Under the pieces are notes generated by a model. That model searched no databases and was not told the origin of the DNA. It saw only the letters and a list, made by a program, of their open reading frames with translations. Below, one piece after another: positions 12,514-20,060 of a DNA stretch of 54,095 bases; position 1 is the first letter of the stretch; each line of letters starts with the position of its first letter. The translations under genes and the position numbers were made by a program. This DNA is from Deltaproteobacteria bacterium (GTDB lineage: Bacteria; Myxococcota_A; Polyangia; Polyangiales; Houyiibacteriaceae): the NCBI GenBank assembly GCA_034670305.1, contig JAXMNT010000050.1, positions 1-54,095 of the forward strand. Reading direction: 5' to 3'.

Positions 12514-12553
12514 GGTCAGATCCGGTTGGTCAGATCCGGTGGTCAGATTCGGT
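12514..12553. repeat. Tandem 13-14 bp repeat GGTCAGATYCGGT x3 covering the kinase stop codon
   Basis: Units at 12514-12527, 12528-12540 and 12541-12553. Confidence 0.85.
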
Positions 12554-13451
12554 GGATGCCGCTGAGCGAGCCGGTGATGGTGGCGCGCATCTCCGCGGCG
12601 GACGAGAAGCGGTGGGCCGGGTGGGTGCGCAGCGCCTTGGCGACCACTTCCACGATCGCAACCGGGAGGCCCGGACAGTAGAGGGAGAGCGACGGCGCGG
12701 GTTCGCGGGCGATCTGAACGAGGAGTTTGCTCAGCTGCGTGGCCTCGAACGGCGGGCGGCCCGCCAGCATCTGGAAGAAGACGGCGCCGACGGCCCACAG
12801 ATCGGTGGCCGGCGACACCGGCAGGTCGCCGGTGATCTGTTCGGGCGCCATGAACTGTGGGGTGCCGAGCAGCACGCCCTGGTCGGTGATCCAAGGGTTG
12901 CTCTTGGTCGGCGTGATGGCTTTCGCGATCCCGAAGTCGAGCAGCTTCACCCCGAAGCCGTGCACCCCATCGCCGAGCCCTTCGAGGAAGATGTTCTCGG
13001 GTTTGATGTCGCGGTGCACGTACCCGCGGGTGTGCACCGCATCGAGTGCGTCCAGCAGTTGCAGGACGATCTCGACCGCTTCGTCGAGGGCGAACGGGCG
13101 GTCTTCGAGCGCGCTCGCGAGTTCCCGTCCTTCGAGAAGCTCCATGGCTTGCCATGCGGTTCCGTCGGACTCCACGCCCGCGTCCAGCAGGCGCACGATG
13201 TTGGGGTGCTGCATCGCGCAGACGGTTCGAACCTCGCGTTCGAACCGCACCTGCTGCAGCTCGCTCTTGCGGTAGCGCGCGTGCAGGACCTTGACCGCGA
13301 CGATGGCGCCGGTCGGTTCGTGGCGGGCTTCGAACACGCTTCCGCCACTGCCTTCGCCGATGGTCCGGAGCAGGGTGTACTCGCCGACCATGGTCCGAGG
13401 GAGATCTTGGTCTTGGGAGAACCCAGCGGTTCCGAGAGGGAGCGTGTCCAT
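12543..13451 (-). CDS. Hanks-type Ser/Thr protein kinase, catalytic domain only
   Basis: GEGSGG, VAVK, HRDIKPEN, DFG, GTPQFMAPE, DLW. Confidence 0.93.
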   Translation of the reverse strand: MDTLPLGTAGFSQDQDLPRTMVGEYTLLRTIGEGSGGSVFEARHEPTGAIVAVKVLHARYRKSELQQVRFEREVRTVCAMQHPNIVRLLDAGVESDGTAWQAMELLEGRELASALEDRPFALDEAVEIVLQLLDALDAVHTRGYVHRDIKPENIFLEGLGDGVHGFGVKLLDFGIAKAITPTKSNPWITDQGVLLGTPQFMAPEQITGDLPVSPATDLWAVGAVFFQMLAGRPPFEATQLSKLLVQIAREPAPSLSLYCPGLPVAIVEVVAKALRTHPAHRFSSAAEMRATITGSLSGIHRI

Positions 13452-13629
13452 GGCAGATGTTTCCGTTCTTAGACGACCAACCGCACTGGTGTACGCACCG
13501 TGCACGGTTCGCATTCCTTGTTGGTTCCCCAACACCAAAGATTCATCTCAGAACCCAGCGGCTCCCGGCGGGCGGGGGTGGTAGAGTCCCGGTCCGCCTC
13601 GGCGCGACGCCGGGGGAGGGTCTGATCCG

Positions 13630-15711
13630 ATGGCCTACACCGTTTTCGCTCGCAAATACCGACCCCAGACCTTCGCGGACCTCGCGGGTCAGGAGCATGT
13701 CGCGAAAACCCTGACAGGGGCGATCGCCGTGGGCCGGGTCGCCCACGCCTTCTTGTTCACCGGGGTGCGCGGCGTCGGCAAGACGAGCGCGGCTCGGGTC
13801 CTGGCCAAAGCGCTCAACTGCGAGACCGGTCCCACCGCGACCCCCTGCAACGTGTGTTCGGTCTGCAAAGACGTGACGGCCGGGGTCGACATGGACGTCG
13901 TCGAGATGGACGGCGCCTCGAACAACAGCGTGGACGATGTTCGGCGTCTCCAGGAGACGCTCCCGTTCCGTCCTGCACGCGGCCGCTTCAAAGTCGTCAT
14001 CGTCGACGAAGTGCACATGCTCTCGACCGCGGCGTTCAACGCGTTCCTCAAGACGCTGGAAGAGCCGCCGCCCCATGTGAAGTTCATCTTCGCGACGACC
14101 GAGAGCCACAAGGTACCGATCACGATTCGCTCGCGGTGCCAGCGCTACGACTTCCGGCTCATCCCCCGCGCGATCATCGCGGAGCGGGTGCGCGCGATCC
14201 TCGAATCGGAGAAGGTCCAAGCGGACGATGCGACGGTCGCGCTGGTGGCACGCGAAGCGGCGGGCTCGATGCGGGACGCGCTCACGCTGCTCGACCAGAT
14301 CGTGGCCTTCGGTGGCGACCGACTCGAAGGAGAAGAGGTCGCGCGGCACCTGGGCATCGCGGCCCGCGGCGCGGTCCAGAGTGTGGTGCAGGCGATCTTG
14401 GACGGCGACGCCGGCACGGTGTTGCGCTTTCTCGACGAGAGCCTCGCGCAAGGCACCGACCCGCTTCACTTCACCAACCAGCTGCTGCACCTGCTTCGAG
14501 ACCTGGTCGTGCTCTCGGTGACCGGCGACGACAGCGCGCTCGTGGATCTGGTCGCCGAAGAGAAGAAGGCGGCGAGGGTGCTCGCCGACTCCCGCGACGT
14601 GCTCGAGTTGCAGCGGGTGTTCTCGGTCGTCTCGAAGGTCGTGGACGAGGTCGCCCAGGCGAGCTCGCCGAAGCTGGTGCTCGAGATGGGTCTCGTTCGG
14701 GCGGCCACCCGGCCGGCGCTGCAGCCCGTCGGAGAACTGCTCGCCCGCTTGAAGCGCCTCGAGAGTCAGATCGGGCCCGGTCGCGCCGCGGCGGCCGGCC
14801 GGAGTCGTGCGCCAGGCGGCGGTCGCCCGAGAGAGGAGCGGGCCGGCGACAAGCCGGCCCCGCCAAGAGGCGCGCCCCGCGCGCCCCGAGCCAGCCAACC
14901 CAGCGCAGCAACTACGGATTCCAGCGCTGGCGCACCCGCCGAGGCACCCGGGTCGCGACGCGCCGAGTCGGCGGGCCCGATAGGCGCCACCGCACCCAGC
15001 GCCGCGTCGGGCGGTCCGACGGGTGCCGCGATGGCGTCCTCCGCACCCTCCGCACCGCGATCCGCACCGTCTGCTTCAGCTCCATCCTCGCCTGCTTCGG
15101 CTTCACGTTCCGCACCTGCTTCGGCTTCACGCTCCGCACCCGCGCCCGCACGCTCGACCGATCCGCGCGAGCGGCCGTTCGCGCCCGACGACGCGGCGCC
15201 CGCGCGGCCAGCCCGGGCCGAGCGCTCGCCTGGGCCATCGCAGTCCCCAGCCGCCGGTCCCAAACCCGCCGAGGTCCAAATCCGGCGGGCAGCGCTCCTC
15301 GAATGGGAGCGCATCGTGGCCGCCTTGCGAGGTCCGAAACCGGCACTCGCCGCGGTCCTCGAACACGCGGAGCCTCGAGTGGTGACCGGTGAGCGGGTCG
15401 TCATCGCGTTCAAGAAGGGTTCGTTCTACGGCCATCAGGCCGGCAGCCCGGACGCGCGGGACATCATCGGGCAGATGGTCGAGAAGACGTTCGGCAAGAG
15501 GCCGAAGATCGAAGTCGTCTTCGACGCGAAGGGCGGCGGCCGGCGCACCGTGGCGGTGGTGGAAGAGACCCGCCGAGACGGAGAGCTCGCGGCCCGCAAA
15601 CGCGAAGCCCTCGCGCACCCCGTCGTGCGCGACGCGATGCAGATCTTCCCGGCGTCGCGCGGCAAGGTCGCGGTGAAGCTCGCAGACCACGCCGGCGAAA
15701 GCGACTCATGA
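13630..15711 (+). CDS. dnaX: DNA polymerase III subunit gamma/tau
   Basis: ARKYRPQTF, Walker A GVRGVGKT, Zn cysteines, DEVHML, SRCQ, long Pro/Ala/Ser linker; dnaX-ybaB-recR synteny. Confidence 0.97.
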   Translation: MAYTVFARKYRPQTFADLAGQEHVAKTLTGAIAVGRVAHAFLFTGVRGVGKTSAARVLAKALNCETGPTATPCNVCSVCKDVTAGVDMDVVEMDGASNNSVDDVRRLQETLPFRPARGRFKVVIVDEVHMLSTAAFNAFLKTLEEPPPHVKFIFATTESHKVPITIRSRCQRYDFRLIPRAIIAERVRAILESEKVQADDATVALVAREAAGSMRDALTLLDQIVAFGGDRLEGEEVARHLGIAARGAVQSVVQAILDGDAGTVLRFLDESLAQGTDPLHFTNQLLHLLRDLVVLSVTGDDSALVDLVAEEKKAARVLADSRDVLELQRVFSVVSKVVDEVAQASSPKLVLEMGLVRAATRPALQPVGELLARLKRLESQIGPGRAAAAGRSRAPGGGRPREERAGDKPAPPRGAPRAPRASQPSAATTDSSAGAPAEAPGSRRAESAGPIGATAPSAASGGPTGAAMASSAPSAPRSAPSASAPSSPASASRSAPASASRSAPAPARSTDPRERPFAPDDAAPARPARAERSPGPSQSPAAGPKPAEVQIRRAALLEWERIVAALRGPKPALAAVLEHAEPRVVTGERVVIAFKKGSFYGHQAGSPDARDIIGQMVEKTFGKRPKIEVVFDAKGGGRRTVAVVEETRRDGELAARKREALAHPVVRDAMQIFPASRGKVAVKLADHAGESDS

Positions 15712-15789: not shown

Positions 15790-15816
15790 GCCGCGTTCCA
15801 CGACTAGAGGTATGAA

Positions 15817-16137
15817 ATGAAGTTCCGAGGCGGAATGGCTGAGCTCATGCGGCAGGCCAGCCGAATGCAGCGCAAGATCGAAAAACGGCGCGAAGAGCTC
15901 AAAGACGATGAGTACGAGGCCGGCGCCGGCAACGATCTCGTCAAGGTGACCGTCAACGGCGGCGCCGAGGTCGTGAAGGTCACGATCGATCCGAAAGCCC
16001 TCGAAGACGAAGGTCTCGAGATGGTGTGCGATCTGCTTGCGGCCGCGACGAACGCGGCCCTCACCAAGGCGCGCGAACACGTCGACGCGGAGCTCGAGAA
16101 AGTCACCGGCGGCTTGAAGATCCCCGGACTCGGCTGA
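15817..16137 (+). CDS. ybaB: YbaB/EbfC nucleoid-associated protein
   Basis: MRQASRMQ, AGNDLVKVTVNG, DLLAAATN, TGGLKIPG; lies between dnaX and recR. Confidence 0.95.
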   Translation: MKFRGGMAELMRQASRMQRKIEKRREELKDDEYEAGAGNDLVKVTVNGGAEVVKVTIDPKALEDEGLEMVCDLLAAATNAALTKAREHVDAELEKVTGGLKIPGLG

Positions 16138-16148
16138 ACGTCGCGTCC

Positions 16149-16766
16149 ATGTCCGAATCCGGAAAGAAGCAGTCGGGCGATCCCCTCGGGGAGCTCGTCG
16201 GGCTGCTCGGCCGACTCCCCGGCATCGGGGAGCGGACCGCGACCCGGCTCGCCTTCCACGTGCTCGGGGGAGACGCGACCTACGCAGAAGCACTGGGTGA
16301 GTCGCTCGCGAACATTCACGAGCGCGTGGTCCGGTGCGAGCGCTGCGGCAACTACGGCGCCGAGTCCGTGTGTCTCATCTGCGCGGACACCCGCCGCGAA
16401 GAAGGCGTGCTCTGCGTGGTCGCGCGGGTTCCGGATCTGGTCGCGATCGAACGCAGCTACACGTACCGCGGTCGCTACCATGTGCTCCATGGGCTTCTGG
16501 CGCCGCTCGACGGAGTCGGTCCCGAGGACCTCTCGCTCGACCCGCTCCTGCGCCGCATCGAAGCCGAAGCCATCCGCGAGGTGATCGTCGCCACCCCACT
16601 GAACGTGGAAGGCGAAGCGACCGCGCTCTACATCTCGCAAGTGCTGCAAGAAGAGACGAAAGCAAAGGTCTCGCGCATCGCCAGCGGCGTGCCCCACGGT
16701 GGAGAACTCGAGTTCACCGATCAGGTCACCCTCGGCCGCGCGCTCCAAGACCGCAAGAACATGTAG
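16149..16766 (+). CDS. recR: Recombination mediator RecR
   Basis: [13 protein letters not shown] (HhH), C4 Zn finger, [38 protein letters not shown]. Confidence 0.97.
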
Positions 16767-17049: not shown

Positions 17050-19926
17050 TCAGTCGATGTCGTCGAGGTCGTCGAAGTCGTGGGACTCGACTTCTGCGGG
17101 CGCGCTCGGAGCCGGCGCTTGGGTCCGGACCGGCGTGACCGGCGCTGTGGGGGCCGGAGGTGGCGCGTCGAGGCGCATGCCCAGAGAGAGGCCGAGTTCG
17201 CTCAGGATCTCCTTCAGCTCCTTCAAAGTCTCGCGGCCCGCGTCTCTCATCTTGAGCACGTCGACGTCGGACTTCTGGACGAGCTGCCGCAACGTCACGA
17301 CGCCCATGTTCTGGAGCAGGTTCGCGGTGCGGACCGACAACTCGAGTTCGTCCACGCGCCGTTCCAGATACGGATGGGTTGGGGGCGGCTCGTCGACGGC
17401 CGACTTGGGGATCGGGTCGTTCCACGAGGACGCGCCCCTGGCGTCGCCTTCGGGCGCGGGACCGCTTCGCAGGCCGAGCAGGCGCCGACTGCGGAGGTCT
17501 GTGAGCGGATCGACGCGCTGGTGGAGGGCGGCGCCCATGACAACGGCGGCGAACTCCGTGGGCGATGCGTCGATCGCTGCCGCCAGCCAATGCGCCTTGG
17601 CGTGCGCGCCGCCAACCGAGCCCGCGCCTGCCTCGGAGTGAAGCACCCGTAGCCCCCGGACCTCGTCGATCGCTCGGGCCGAGAGCGGCACGTGGACCGC
17701 GACCGATTCGCCGGCCGCCAGCTGGAGCGTGTCGATGAGCGAGGGCGCGAGCCCCACCGCGAACCCGTCCCAGAGTTCCACTCGGAGTCCGAGCGCGCTG
17801 GGTCCGCTGGCGCCGGGTTTGGTGACGAGCAGCACAGGGTGGTCCCGCATGCCCGACTCGGCGATGGCCTCCAGGAGGTCGCCGCCTTTCTGGACCATGA
17901 CTTTGGCCGACTTGATCGTCGTCACGTAGCCAGCCGCCTCGAGCCGGCCGTAGATCATGGGTTTGAAGAGTTCGGTCGCCAGACTGCGGGGGAGCCGGAC
18001 GCAGTCTTCTGAGAGACGAGGGACCGGCACCACCACGGCCGCGCCCGAGTAGTCCACCCGCTTGCCCCGCTCAGCCATCTGCATGTGGCTGTGTGTGAGG
18101 TCGGCGATGGGGCGCAGCCTCCGCTTCTCCGGTTCGCCCCGGCTGTCGTCGAAACCGAGCACCGTCCCCCCGCGCGCGCCGTTGTCCACGAGCGCCCCGA
18201 GTGCTCCTTGAAGGTGTCCGACTTCGCTGCGCAGGATGGGAAACGGCGCATTCAGCTCGAGCAAGCGTTTCATCCGGTTGCTTCGGTTGATGAAGCGCCG
18301 GTAGAGGTCGTTCAGGTCCGAAGTCGCGTAGCGCCCGCCGACCAGGGGCACGATCGGCCGCAGATCCGGCGGAAGCACTGGCCAGGTTTCGTAGAAGACG
18401 TGATCGATCAGCGGCCGGTCGTCGGTGCGGGTGCGGCGCACTTCGTCGCGAAGGGCGTAGACGCCGCCCGACGCCAGATCCTCGGCAGGCGAGAGCGCGT
18501 AGGTGAGGTGCTCGCGCACGATGCGCGCGACCGTCTTCTCGTCGGTGCCGAGCCATTCGGCGAGCGGACCGTAGCCCCACGGGTGCAGGACGGGGACCGG
18601 CAGATCGACGTGTCCGAACCGCTCGCGCCGCACCTTGCTCGCGATGACTTCGACCCCGCACTTCTCGCAGACCACCCCGCGGTGTTTCATGCGCTTGTAC
18701 TTGCCGCAGACACACTCGTAGTCGGCGATGGGCCCGAAGATGCGCGCGCAGAAGAGCCCGCCGGCCTCCGGCTTGTGCGTCCGGTAGTTCAGCGTCTCTG
18801 GCTTCTGCACCTCGCCGTGCGAGCGGGCCCGGATCTGGGCGTCGCTCGAGAGGGTGAGCAGCATCTGGGTGAGTGTGTCGGTGCTCTGCGGTTTCTCGAA
18901 GAACGAGAAGATGTCGCGCTTCTTCTCCGGTGCCGGCGAGGCCGTGGGCGAGATCCCGGTCGTCACCTCGAAGCCCAGCCCGATGAGTTCCCGCTTCAGC
19001 ACGTGGGTGAGCTCGGGAATGCCCGCGTCGAAGGTCGTCTGCTGTTTGACCAGCCCCTCGTACGCGCGGGTTCGGCCGGACACGTCGTCCGTCTTGATCG
19101 TGAGCAGCTCGTGGAGCGTCTGCCACGCGCCGGCGGACTCGAGCAACGCGGCGTGGGCGCCGGTGAAGAGCTGGCCGCCAAACTGCGCTTTGCCGCCGAG
19201 CGGTTGCTGGGTGACGATCGAGTAGGGCCCGATGCCCCGCGCGTGCAGAACGGCTTCCGCGCACTGGATCTTCTGCACCTCGAAGGTGCCGGCCGGGCCC
19301 GACCAGACCATCGCTGCGCCGGCGGGAAGGTCCTCGCTGATCTCGGAGACCACCGCTCGTTCGCCGCCAAGAGTCAGCACATCACCGACCGCCAGCGCGC
19401 GGTGGTCGGTGACGTCGACCTCCACCCGGATCGACTTCTCGCCCACCTCTCGCACGGCTCGGGTCACGGTGCCTTTCGCGTCCGGCGGGCAAGCCACCGA
19501 GGCGTCGCGCACGTCGCCCGCCATCTCTCCGAAGATGGCGCGCAGCAGCTTCTCTTCTTGCGACAGCAGGGTGCTCGCCTTGTCCTGCACCCGGCCGATC
19601 AGGATGGTGCCGGGCACGACGACCGAGCCGGATTTGGCCACGCCGTGTTCGTCCAGGTGGGCCAGCACCGCGGCGCCCTTGTTCGGGATGTCGAAGGTGA
19701 AGGACTCGCGCGCGTCTTTGGCGGTGGAGACCTCCGCTGTGAACGTCTGTACGTGGGTCGAGGCCAGGGCCGCCGCGGCGCTCGGGCGGATGCGCACGGA
19801 GGCCAGGGCGGGCAGTGCGGAGGCCAGGGCGGGCCGGGCGGAAGGCAGGGCGGAGGGGTCCGACGCGACCTGCAGGGAGCAGGCGCGTTCGCCGGAGGCG
19901 AGGGTCAGGGGGCCGGTCTCGAGCAT
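17050..19926 (-). CDS. Single-chain RpoB/RpoC/RpoA-CTD mosaic lacking the RNAP active site (putative RNA polymerase mimic)
   Basis: In order: RpoB flap (DIPN...[11 protein letters not shown]), RpoB C-terminus ([25 protein letters not shown]), RpoC N-terminus ([62 protein letters not shown]), an RpoC C-terminal-like segment, and alpha-CTD ([12 protein letters not shown]). No NADFDGD. Confidence 0.93.
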
Positions 19927-20060
19927 ATGAGCAGAACCTACTACGGGGCCTCCTCCCGAAGTCACCCCTCCGCACGCCACAGCGCCCGTGGGAGGGAGGC
20001 TTGTGCGGGGGCGTGCGCCACTTCTTTAACATCCGCGGTCGTTGTCTCTACCGTCGCGTC

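Follow-up and report, generated by a model that had tools for sequence, protein, structure and literature searches.

What can a protein built from parts of RNA polymerase do once its catalytic centre is gone? The question is raised by a gene at 17050-19926 (-) in contig JAXMNT010000050.1 of a deltaproteobacterium of the Polyangiales (assembly GCA_034670305.1), of which a stretch of 54,095 nucleotides, here called the window, was analysed. The gene product, referred to below as the chimera, joins pieces of the beta, beta' and alpha subunits in one chain, and an initial annotation had suggested that its active site was lost while the surfaces that bind sigma were spared, pointing to an anti-sigma-like function by mimicry of the polymerase core. 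The analysis favours, with a probability of about 0.5, the reading that the chimera is a non-catalytic core mimic that binds sigma, since sigma alone among the known partners makes use of all the kept surfaces at once.

Translation from the ATG at 19926 to the stop codon at 17050-17052 gives 958 amino acids (aa), the form found as protein-collection entry P0002, whose residue numbering is used throughout, while an in-frame GTG at 19980 gives a longer open reading frame (ORF) of 976 aa (17050-19980 (-)). All parts of the gene are given below on the same strand (-). The span 17704-19557 first described is part of this gene, leaving out the N-terminal half of the flap at one end and, at the other, the C-terminal domain of the alpha subunit (alpha-CTD) and the tail. 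Profile and homology searches of the host genome (7.9 Mb, 96% complete) located the ordinary subunit genes elsewhere, rpoB and rpoC together on contig C47 and rpoA on C40, and the chimera is therefore an extra paralogue. When aligned to beta, beta' and alpha of E. coli K-12 and to the host's own subunits, its parts proved colinear with the rpoB-rpoC junction, beginning with the beta flap and the beta C-terminus, continuing with beta' 1-485 and ending with the alpha-CTD and an acidic tail; phmmer alignments to PDB entries independently agree with the E. coli alignment. The Pfam order in the protein is Rpb2_6, Rpb2_7, Rpb1_1, a weak Rpb1_2 and RNA_pol_A_CTD. Among the NCBIfam models the top matches were those for fused beta/beta', followed by rpoC, rpoB and rpoA, all far under their cut-offs: 322.6 bits against 963.5 for TIGR02386 (rpoC), with only model positions 3-99 and 221-465 matched, 208.6 against 801 bits for TIGR02013 (rpoB) and 52.4 against 227.8 for TIGR02027 (rpoA), where the match is to the CTD only and the alpha N-terminal domain (alpha-NTD) is missing.

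The alignments bore out the catalytic losses listed in the initial annotation. Within the double-psi barrel region of beta' (17644-18060, reaching to beta' 485) NADFDGD aligns as QLA-AGES with one of six residues kept, the dead loop QLAAGES being encoded at 17704-17724 (-) in the same ORF as the stretch at 19354-19386 (-) discussed below, and VTKPGAS stands at the place of NRAPTLH, in a region that retains 7/28 invariant positions. Switch 2 (18061-18099) is degenerate, with KGKQGRFRQ aligned to --THSHMQM and 2/12 invariant residues kept, and the rudder keeps 9/18. Where canonical beta has GDKMAGRHGNKG, a different stretch of 11 residues is found at 19354-19386, GGQRFGEME has become GGQLFTGAH, the beta GDK segment keeps 7/19 and beta 1210-1240 keeps 2/15 invariant positions; SGRS has likewise been changed to SGAA. 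GYNFED is absent because the beta part begins just downstream of it, and PSRMN falls inside a deleted segment, beta ~1080-1210. Neither bridge helix, trigger loop nor jaw was found, the alignment stopping at beta' 485 and the Pfam domains Rpb1_3, Rpb1_4 and Rpb1_5 being absent.

The N-terminal clamp elements of rpoC, which are the zipper, the four-cysteine zinc-binding domain, the lid and the clamp helices, are all present together with the flap tip, as had been described. In the flap-tip helix (19528-19557) beta 898-907 aligns with residues 124-133, and the flap-tip region keeps 14/19 invariant positions. ETLNYRT is found in the zipper (18730-18816; 23/27 kept) and all four cysteines, C405/C407/C420/C423 for beta' C70/C72/C85/C88, in the zinc-binding domain (18622-18729; 31/33 kept), and the lid (18319-18387, beta' 241-263; 17/19 kept) reads VLPPDLRP. 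The clamp helices (18181-18318, beta' 264-309, residues 537-582) keep 29/39 positions and include R548, E568 and A575, aligned with beta' R275, E295 and A302, which we take to be sigma-binding residues. These counts refer to 506 positions of the alignment with an invariance of at least 95% among canonical beta and beta' (64 beta' and 17 beta sequences, mostly from Myxococcota and relatives plus E. coli), 287 of which survive in the chimera (57%). When flap tip, zipper, zinc-binding domain, lid and clamp helices were pooled, 114/137 positions were kept (83%) compared with 28/98 (29%) for the catalytic loop, the NRAPTLH region, switch 2, the two active-site segments of beta and the rudder (Fisher p=1.5e-17), and elsewhere 145/271 were kept (second Fisher test, p=1.5e-9), the element boundaries (E. 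coli numbering) being those in use in the literature and neighbouring sites not being independent.

The initial annotation had gone further and excluded DNA and RNA binding along with catalysis. For catalysis the lost motifs agree with this, but the zinc-binding domain, the zipper, the lid and the alpha-CTD are kept, and as judged from the sequence the exclusion of nucleic acid binding seems too strong for the window protein. Its zinc-binding domain has the basic patch KVRRER. Its alpha-CTD (17197-17379, residues ~850-910; PF03118 with 51.7 bits against a cut-off of 23.8) keeps R265 and N268, K298 being replaced by E and S299 by T; these four are DNA-contact residues of alpha-CTD. Among the 23 alpha-CTDs of the family described below, E261 is found in 18, R265 in 13, N268 in 10, K298 in 11 and S299 in 11.

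A model of the complex was made with chimera residues 41-765 (alignment A1) and regions 2-4 of the host RpoD, the sole partner modelled. The score was 0.75, with 0.07 for the best of three controls, and the mark used was calibrated as being reached by 58/80 solved complexes and by 2/110 mismatched pairs; in three runs at least 89% of the contacts were common and the predicted local distance difference test value (pLDDT) of the partner was at least 80. RpoD region 2 was placed on residues 524-571 (lid, clamp helices) and 376-381 (zipper), the linker (3.2) on the beta C-terminus, the rudder and the dock (669-676), and region 4 on residues 122-132 (flap tip), a predicted pose which is that of a holoenzyme. 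A published account places sigma region 2 on the clamp helices and has the linker run beneath the lid and leave via the RNA-exit channel (PMC6648896). Residues in modelled contact are kept in 61/74 cases compared with 226/432 for the others (p=8.5e-7), a test that is not independent of a bias of the model towards canonical-looking surfaces. From this in silico work we infer that the chimera could bind sigma and that sigma might in consequence be kept from the core, which would be the anti-sigma effect.

In the proposed mechanism the clamp helices would receive sigma region 2, the lid, zipper, dock and exit channel would take region 3/3.2, and the flap-tip helix would take region 4 with the alpha-CTD beside it, in a pseudo-core that has lost its bridge helix, trigger loop and Mg loop as well as switch 2 and the active-site loops of beta. 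Sigma would be held in a holoenzyme-like pose in competition with the core, and the outcome would be either a sink or reservoir of sigma or a promoter-bound complex unable to transcribe. The latter is possible because the alpha-CTD, the zipper and the zinc-binding domain are kept, and it leads to a tentative, rather unlikely extension: a promoter-recognition module without an engine, holding regions 2 and 4 of sigma as far apart as in the holoenzyme and adding the alpha-CTD, could form a pseudo-holoenzyme that occupies promoters, perhaps nucleates opening of the -10 element and never transcribes, and that would repress, bookmark or buffer sigma regulons. Relatives that carry only some of the surfaces might be specialised binders of sigma region 2 (clamp helices only) or of region 4 (flap tip plus alpha-CTD). 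No homology to anti-sigma domains appeared in a Pfam scan down to E=1, which gave polymerase domains and one weak DUF only.

A first search for relatives found ten, including an Enhygromyxa salina "hypothetical protein" and proteins of Myxococcales metagenome-assembled genomes (MAGs), and a profile search of 1.84 billion representatives added 65 further clusters after removal of rows with NADFDGD or with a length outside 640-1010 aa. The family comprises at least 76 clusters at 50% identity, all of them open and with a common order of parts; NADFDGD is present in 0/76, the rows carrying it having been filtered out at selection. Its members come from Polyangiaceae, Sandaracinus and Myxococcales and are named either "hypothetical protein" or "RNA polymerase alpha C-terminal domain-containing protein", and the chimera is, by its sequence, a member of an unannotated family of Myxococcota. 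In the tree built from the beta' part the family makes up one side of a branch, with terminal branches of 0.65-2.1 compared with a median of 0.066 for canonical beta' (~20x faster), and because the branches are long its placement on this tree is unsure. Conservation over the 76 clusters reaches at least 80% at 80 positions, which are situated in the flap body, the barrel remnants (RxLxxGD, ARSIGPY, GGQ), the beta C-terminus and GLFCxxIFGP, and further in the basic end of the zinc-binding domain, the lid VLPPDLRP, the start of the clamp helices, VDYS and the dock. With an element counted as kept in a cluster at a retention of 0.6, switch 2 and the Mg loop are retained in 0/76 (maximum retention 0.45 and 0.5), the four cysteines are present in 58/76, the lid in 48/76, the alpha-CTD in 23/76 and an acidic tail in 5/76. 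"Complete" forms with all modules are the window protein, two further proteins (P0003 and P0124) and the copy in genome G120. The phylum search, run with residues 137-262, gave three matches in 401 genomes, the third of which (genome G329) was rejected as canonical rpoB. A scan of 185,579 species revealed three carriers, E. salina SWB007, a Myxococcaceae MAG and a Myxococcota MAG; the three loci understate the family because a single peptide pattern was used.

Several of the findings weigh against sigma as the partner. The claim that the active site was lost and the sigma interface spared holds for the window protein, but not across the family, where the sigma-facing elements are unevenly kept (clamp helices 42/76, zipper 37/76, flap tip 22/76). 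One near clade (P0015, P0016, P0019 and P0033) has lost zipper and clamp helices and still has the flap tip, the zinc-binding domain and the alpha-CTD, while in other clusters the lid and the clamp helices are present and the cysteine ligands and the flap tip are gone. On the family tree the clamp helices change 16 times, the flap tip 11 times and the alpha-CTD 8 times, and since the clamp helices are lost piecemeal, docking of sigma region 2 is not a universal function. By raw counts the flap tip occurs in 14/23 clusters with an alpha-CTD and in 8/53 without, and the clamp helices in 5/23 and 37/53, respectively; neither link held up in independent contrasts (4 pairs, median p=1). The family is rare, with 2/401 genomes of the phylum for the queries used and 2/151 of the order, and in all five loci compared the neighbours differ and neither a sigma nor an anti-sigma gene is adjacent. 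Because holoenzymes have been solved and may be remembered by the method, the passing score of the complex model denotes likeness and not proof of binding. The same surfaces are also used by NusA, NusG, Rho, RapA, Q-type factors and the ribosome.

This last point leads to the rival that we take most seriously, though we still regard it as unlikely, namely that the chimera mimics the RNA-exit channel and clamp and titrates or delivers NusA, NusG, Rho, RapA, the ribosome or structured RNA. NusA would be bound by the flap tip and the alpha-CTD, NusG by the clamp helices, and Rho, RapA or the ribosome by the zinc-binding domain and the flap tip. The elements best kept family-wide fit such a role (mean retention: lid 0.69, flap 913-936 0.62, zipper 0.59, clamp helices 0.57, zinc-binding domain 0.56), as do the four cysteines in 58/76 clusters, the raw co-occurrence of flap tip and alpha-CTD and the patch KVRRER, which is invariant in the near family; published complexes of RapA, Rho, Q, AlpA and the ribosome involve the flap-tip helix and the zinc-binding domain. 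However, the window protein keeps every sigma contact element and no single elongation factor needs all of them, and the co-occurrence is not significant once kinship is allowed for. It appears considerably less probable that the chimera is a decoy for phage-encoded or antibiotic inhibitors of the host polymerase flap, zinc-binding domain or clamp. Phage proteins such as gp33, P7 and Q hit the flap tip, the beta' N-terminus and the zinc-binding domain; P7 is the subject of PMC5053324. The ~20x longer branches, the repeated loss of surface modules and the patchy distribution (2/401) resemble those of conflict genes, but a defence-island context is absent from the five loci examined, the single PADLOC match, to PglW, is weak (18.7 bits) and alpha-CTD-like, and no family member was found in the phage and plasmid collections, where the matches were canonical rpoB and rpoC and none covered 80% of the query. 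A phage or plasmid origin is accordingly unsupported. Myxobacterial antibiotics target the switch region of the polymerase; this region is among the least conserved parts, and a decoy for such compounds was rejected because switch 2 is degenerate (2/12).

Barely behind the decoy in our estimate, and just as hard to favour, is a factor of assembly, or a dominant-negative one, which pairs with canonical alpha, with the N-terminal half of beta or with the C-terminal half of beta'. Both barrel remnants and the core-packing motifs are kept, and the two coupled genes of G120 (see below) presumably give products that reassemble like beta and beta', yet the alpha-NTD is missing and large deletions strip most of the inter-subunit surfaces; an active hybrid enzyme is impossible because the catalytic loops are absent. 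That the gene is a non-functional relic of a segmental duplication we consider the least credible of all. Fast evolution and sporadic distribution would suit a relic, but the gene has 958 open codons with a G+C content at third codon positions (GC3) of 0.87, typical of the genome and matching the surrounding genes, its relatives form 76 diverged clusters that are open and share 80 positions conserved to at least 80%, and the pattern of retention is non-random (114/137 vs 28/98). The pseudogene reading was rejected on the GC3, the open clusters and the conserved positions; the chimera gene is under selection and is not a decaying pseudogene, and the initial annotation was right in arguing against random decay.

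As to the origin of the gene, the junction search, which covered 151 genomes of the same order and profile positions ~202-750 (one of the 151, G123, being counted for canonical matches only), showed that the family profile runs through the rpoB stop codon into rpoC in ~40 of the matches among those listed, with at least one internal stop. The sequence DIFSFFEKP at the start of the beta' part resembles the host beta' and not that of E. coli. Since DIFSFFEKP fits the host beta' and the profile spans the junction, the chimera goes back to a copied rpoBC operon of myxobacterial type. Such a copy would have kept the beta flap, two barrel remnants and the beta'/beta clamp (probably with region H), and the alpha-CTD would have been acquired later, after the reduction of the operon copy. 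The closest genome copy, in G120 (L013:1339-4127 (-)), consists of two genes with a GTGA stop/start overlap, coding for a beta part of 307 aa and a beta'-alpha-CTD part of 622 aa, which ends in the acidic tail YDDDDFEDFD. The split mirrors the division between beta and beta', which argues that both halves are made and may reassemble.

A family-specific C-domain (17437-17604, residues 775-830) with the pattern GWLSxA...AALxGxxD...ALGR bears on the same history. Its profile gives a weak match, though at a plausible position, to region H of beta' (residues 1315-1355 in E. coli; hhalign P=0.0056, probability 6.5%), and the domain is probably a remnant of this clamp-completing segment, which is treated here as a lead. 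Region H folds back and completes the clamp, and if the match is real the ancestor was a whole rpoC from which beta' ~486-1314 (~830 residues) was later deleted.

The remaining parts of the protein can be followed from its N-terminus. An unconserved leader (residues 1-45) precedes the beta flap domain (19459-19773, E. coli beta 826-936, residues 52-156), which holds the flap-tip helix contacted by RpoD region 4 in the complex model. A shrunken first half of the beta double-psi barrel, which contains the stretch at 19354-19386 in place of GDKMAGRHGNKG, follows at 19261-19434 in the E. coli alignment, and then the beta C-terminus (18964-19260, beta 1239-1337, residues 223-321); deleted from beta are 937-1047 and the segment with PSRMN, and beta 1-825 is missing as well. 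A 15-residue linker (18919-18963) takes the place of everything from the rpoB stop through the intergenic spacer to the start of rpoC. Zipper and zinc-binding domain belong to beta' 2-125 (18547-18918, residues 337-460), beta' 126-239 is present in a shortened form, and residues 513-761 correspond to beta' 240-485 with lid, clamp helices, a rudder with an insertion, the degenerate switch 2 and the second barrel. After the C-domain and the alpha-CTD the protein ends in a Pro/Ala-rich spacer and an acidic tail (17053-17172). An AlphaFold model of the chimera, made from an 11-row alignment, was mediocre (pLDDT 62.8), and Foldseek run with this model returned beta' chains only.

Acidic tails with aromatic or aliphatic residues were seen in P0003, P0004, P0005 and P0010 and at 17053-17088 (-) of the window (5/76 clusters), in forms such as DDLDDLD, DDDELDF, EDDYDF and DEDEDDF, and they recall SSB-type or DNA-mimic tails. 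A second paralogue made of a polymerase fragment, a mini-clamp of 286 aa with a GC3 of 0.85, was noted in the host genome at G000:C12:91742-92602 (+), which equals L032:7743-8603. It represents the beta' N-terminus only, with zipper and clamp helices kept, the zinc-binding domain deleted and the lid altered to VCPPSIRP, and it too has an acidic tail (PDDFDFD). Just two close relatives (86-87% identity) were found in 5.8 billion proteins, and its neighbours, an RND pump and an FG-GAP protein, are uninformative.

The neighbours of the chimera gene in the window are an MscS channel, a hypothetical protein and dnaX. A 314-aa ORF (15804-16748 (-)), 300 bases downstream on the same strand, gave no Pfam or PADLOC match, and it does not adjoin the family member in the four other loci examined. 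Also nearby are a Ser/Thr protein kinase and dnaX (clamp-loader tau/gamma), at 12543-13538 (-) and 13630-15711 (+), in an ordinary chromosomal context with no sign of a mobile element. In G120 the flanking ORFs resemble acyl-CoA dehydrogenase and amidase, judged from their translations; the Enhygromyxa salina locus has a Na/H exchanger and Hsp70, and of the two Myxococcota MAG loci one has a PfkB kinase and dihydropyrimidine dehydrogenase, the other peptidase S9, a histidine kinase and ProRS. No neighbour is common to the loci, and gene context therefore gives no clue to the function.

Bacterial RNA polymerase subunits are normally single-copy, and to our knowledge no catalytically dead paralogue of them has been described. 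In the Protein Atlas the chimera matched polymerase clusters only, at 0.82 and under the 0.9 level; two clusters there (61 and 53 members; ~1,480 aa) are apparently full-length beta' with an alpha-CTD Pfam domain throughout. Full-text literature searches gave no description of such a protein, a mention in Iyer and Aravind 2012 (PMC3769190) being still possible. On the sequence evidence the chimera, a dead, truncated and fused paralogue of polymerase subunits, may be the first sign of a natural "pseudo-core". The window protein and its closest relatives (P0003, P0124 and the G120 copy) keep all sigma surfaces and discard the enzyme, others keep subsets, and the chimera shows which parts of the polymerase can fold and persist alone. 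Should sigma indeed be bound, the chimera would represent a new structural class of sigma regulator acting via core mimicry and a minimal scaffold of natural origin on which sigma docking, promoter recognition and exit-channel factors could be studied in the absence of catalysis, and a pseudo-holoenzyme, if real, would be a new way of repressing, bookmarking or buffering whole sigma regulons.

Compared with the canonical subunits, the chimera is 43-57% identical to those of the host over the kept blocks and 53% in the alpha-CTD, and it has the part order of rpoB-rpoC with a nearly canonical flap, zinc-binding domain, lid and clamp helices, but it is without about two thirds of both beta and beta' (including beta' ~486-1314), without NADFDGD, bridge helix, trigger loop and alpha-NTD, and evolves ~20x faster. 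It shares with the fused beta::beta' proteins of the Helicobacter/Wolbachia type (NF007172/NF011417), its best NCBIfam match, the arrangement of beta and then beta' in one chain; those proteins, however, are complete, active and ~2,800-2,900 aa long, whereas the chimera has 958 aa, has lost the catalytic residues and reaches 462.3 bits against the NF007172 cut-off of 5372. Known anti-sigma factors (Rsd, AsiA, FlgM and the ASD type) cover the core-binding or DNA-binding faces of sigma with unrelated folds. The outcome proposed for the chimera would be the same, sigma being withheld from the core, but it has no sequence kinship with them and would offer the docking surfaces of the core itself. 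A further parallel comes from the laboratory. Isolated beta' and flap fragments suffice for binding to regions 2 and 4 of sigma and are able to unmask its recognition of the -10 element, and the groups of Burgess, Gross/Darst and Severinov have reportedly found that beta' ~1-314 or the 260-309 coiled-coil, and the beta flap, bind sigma-70 in vitro. Those fragments were engineered, whereas the chimera is a natural, conserved gene that joins both pieces and adds an alpha-CTD.

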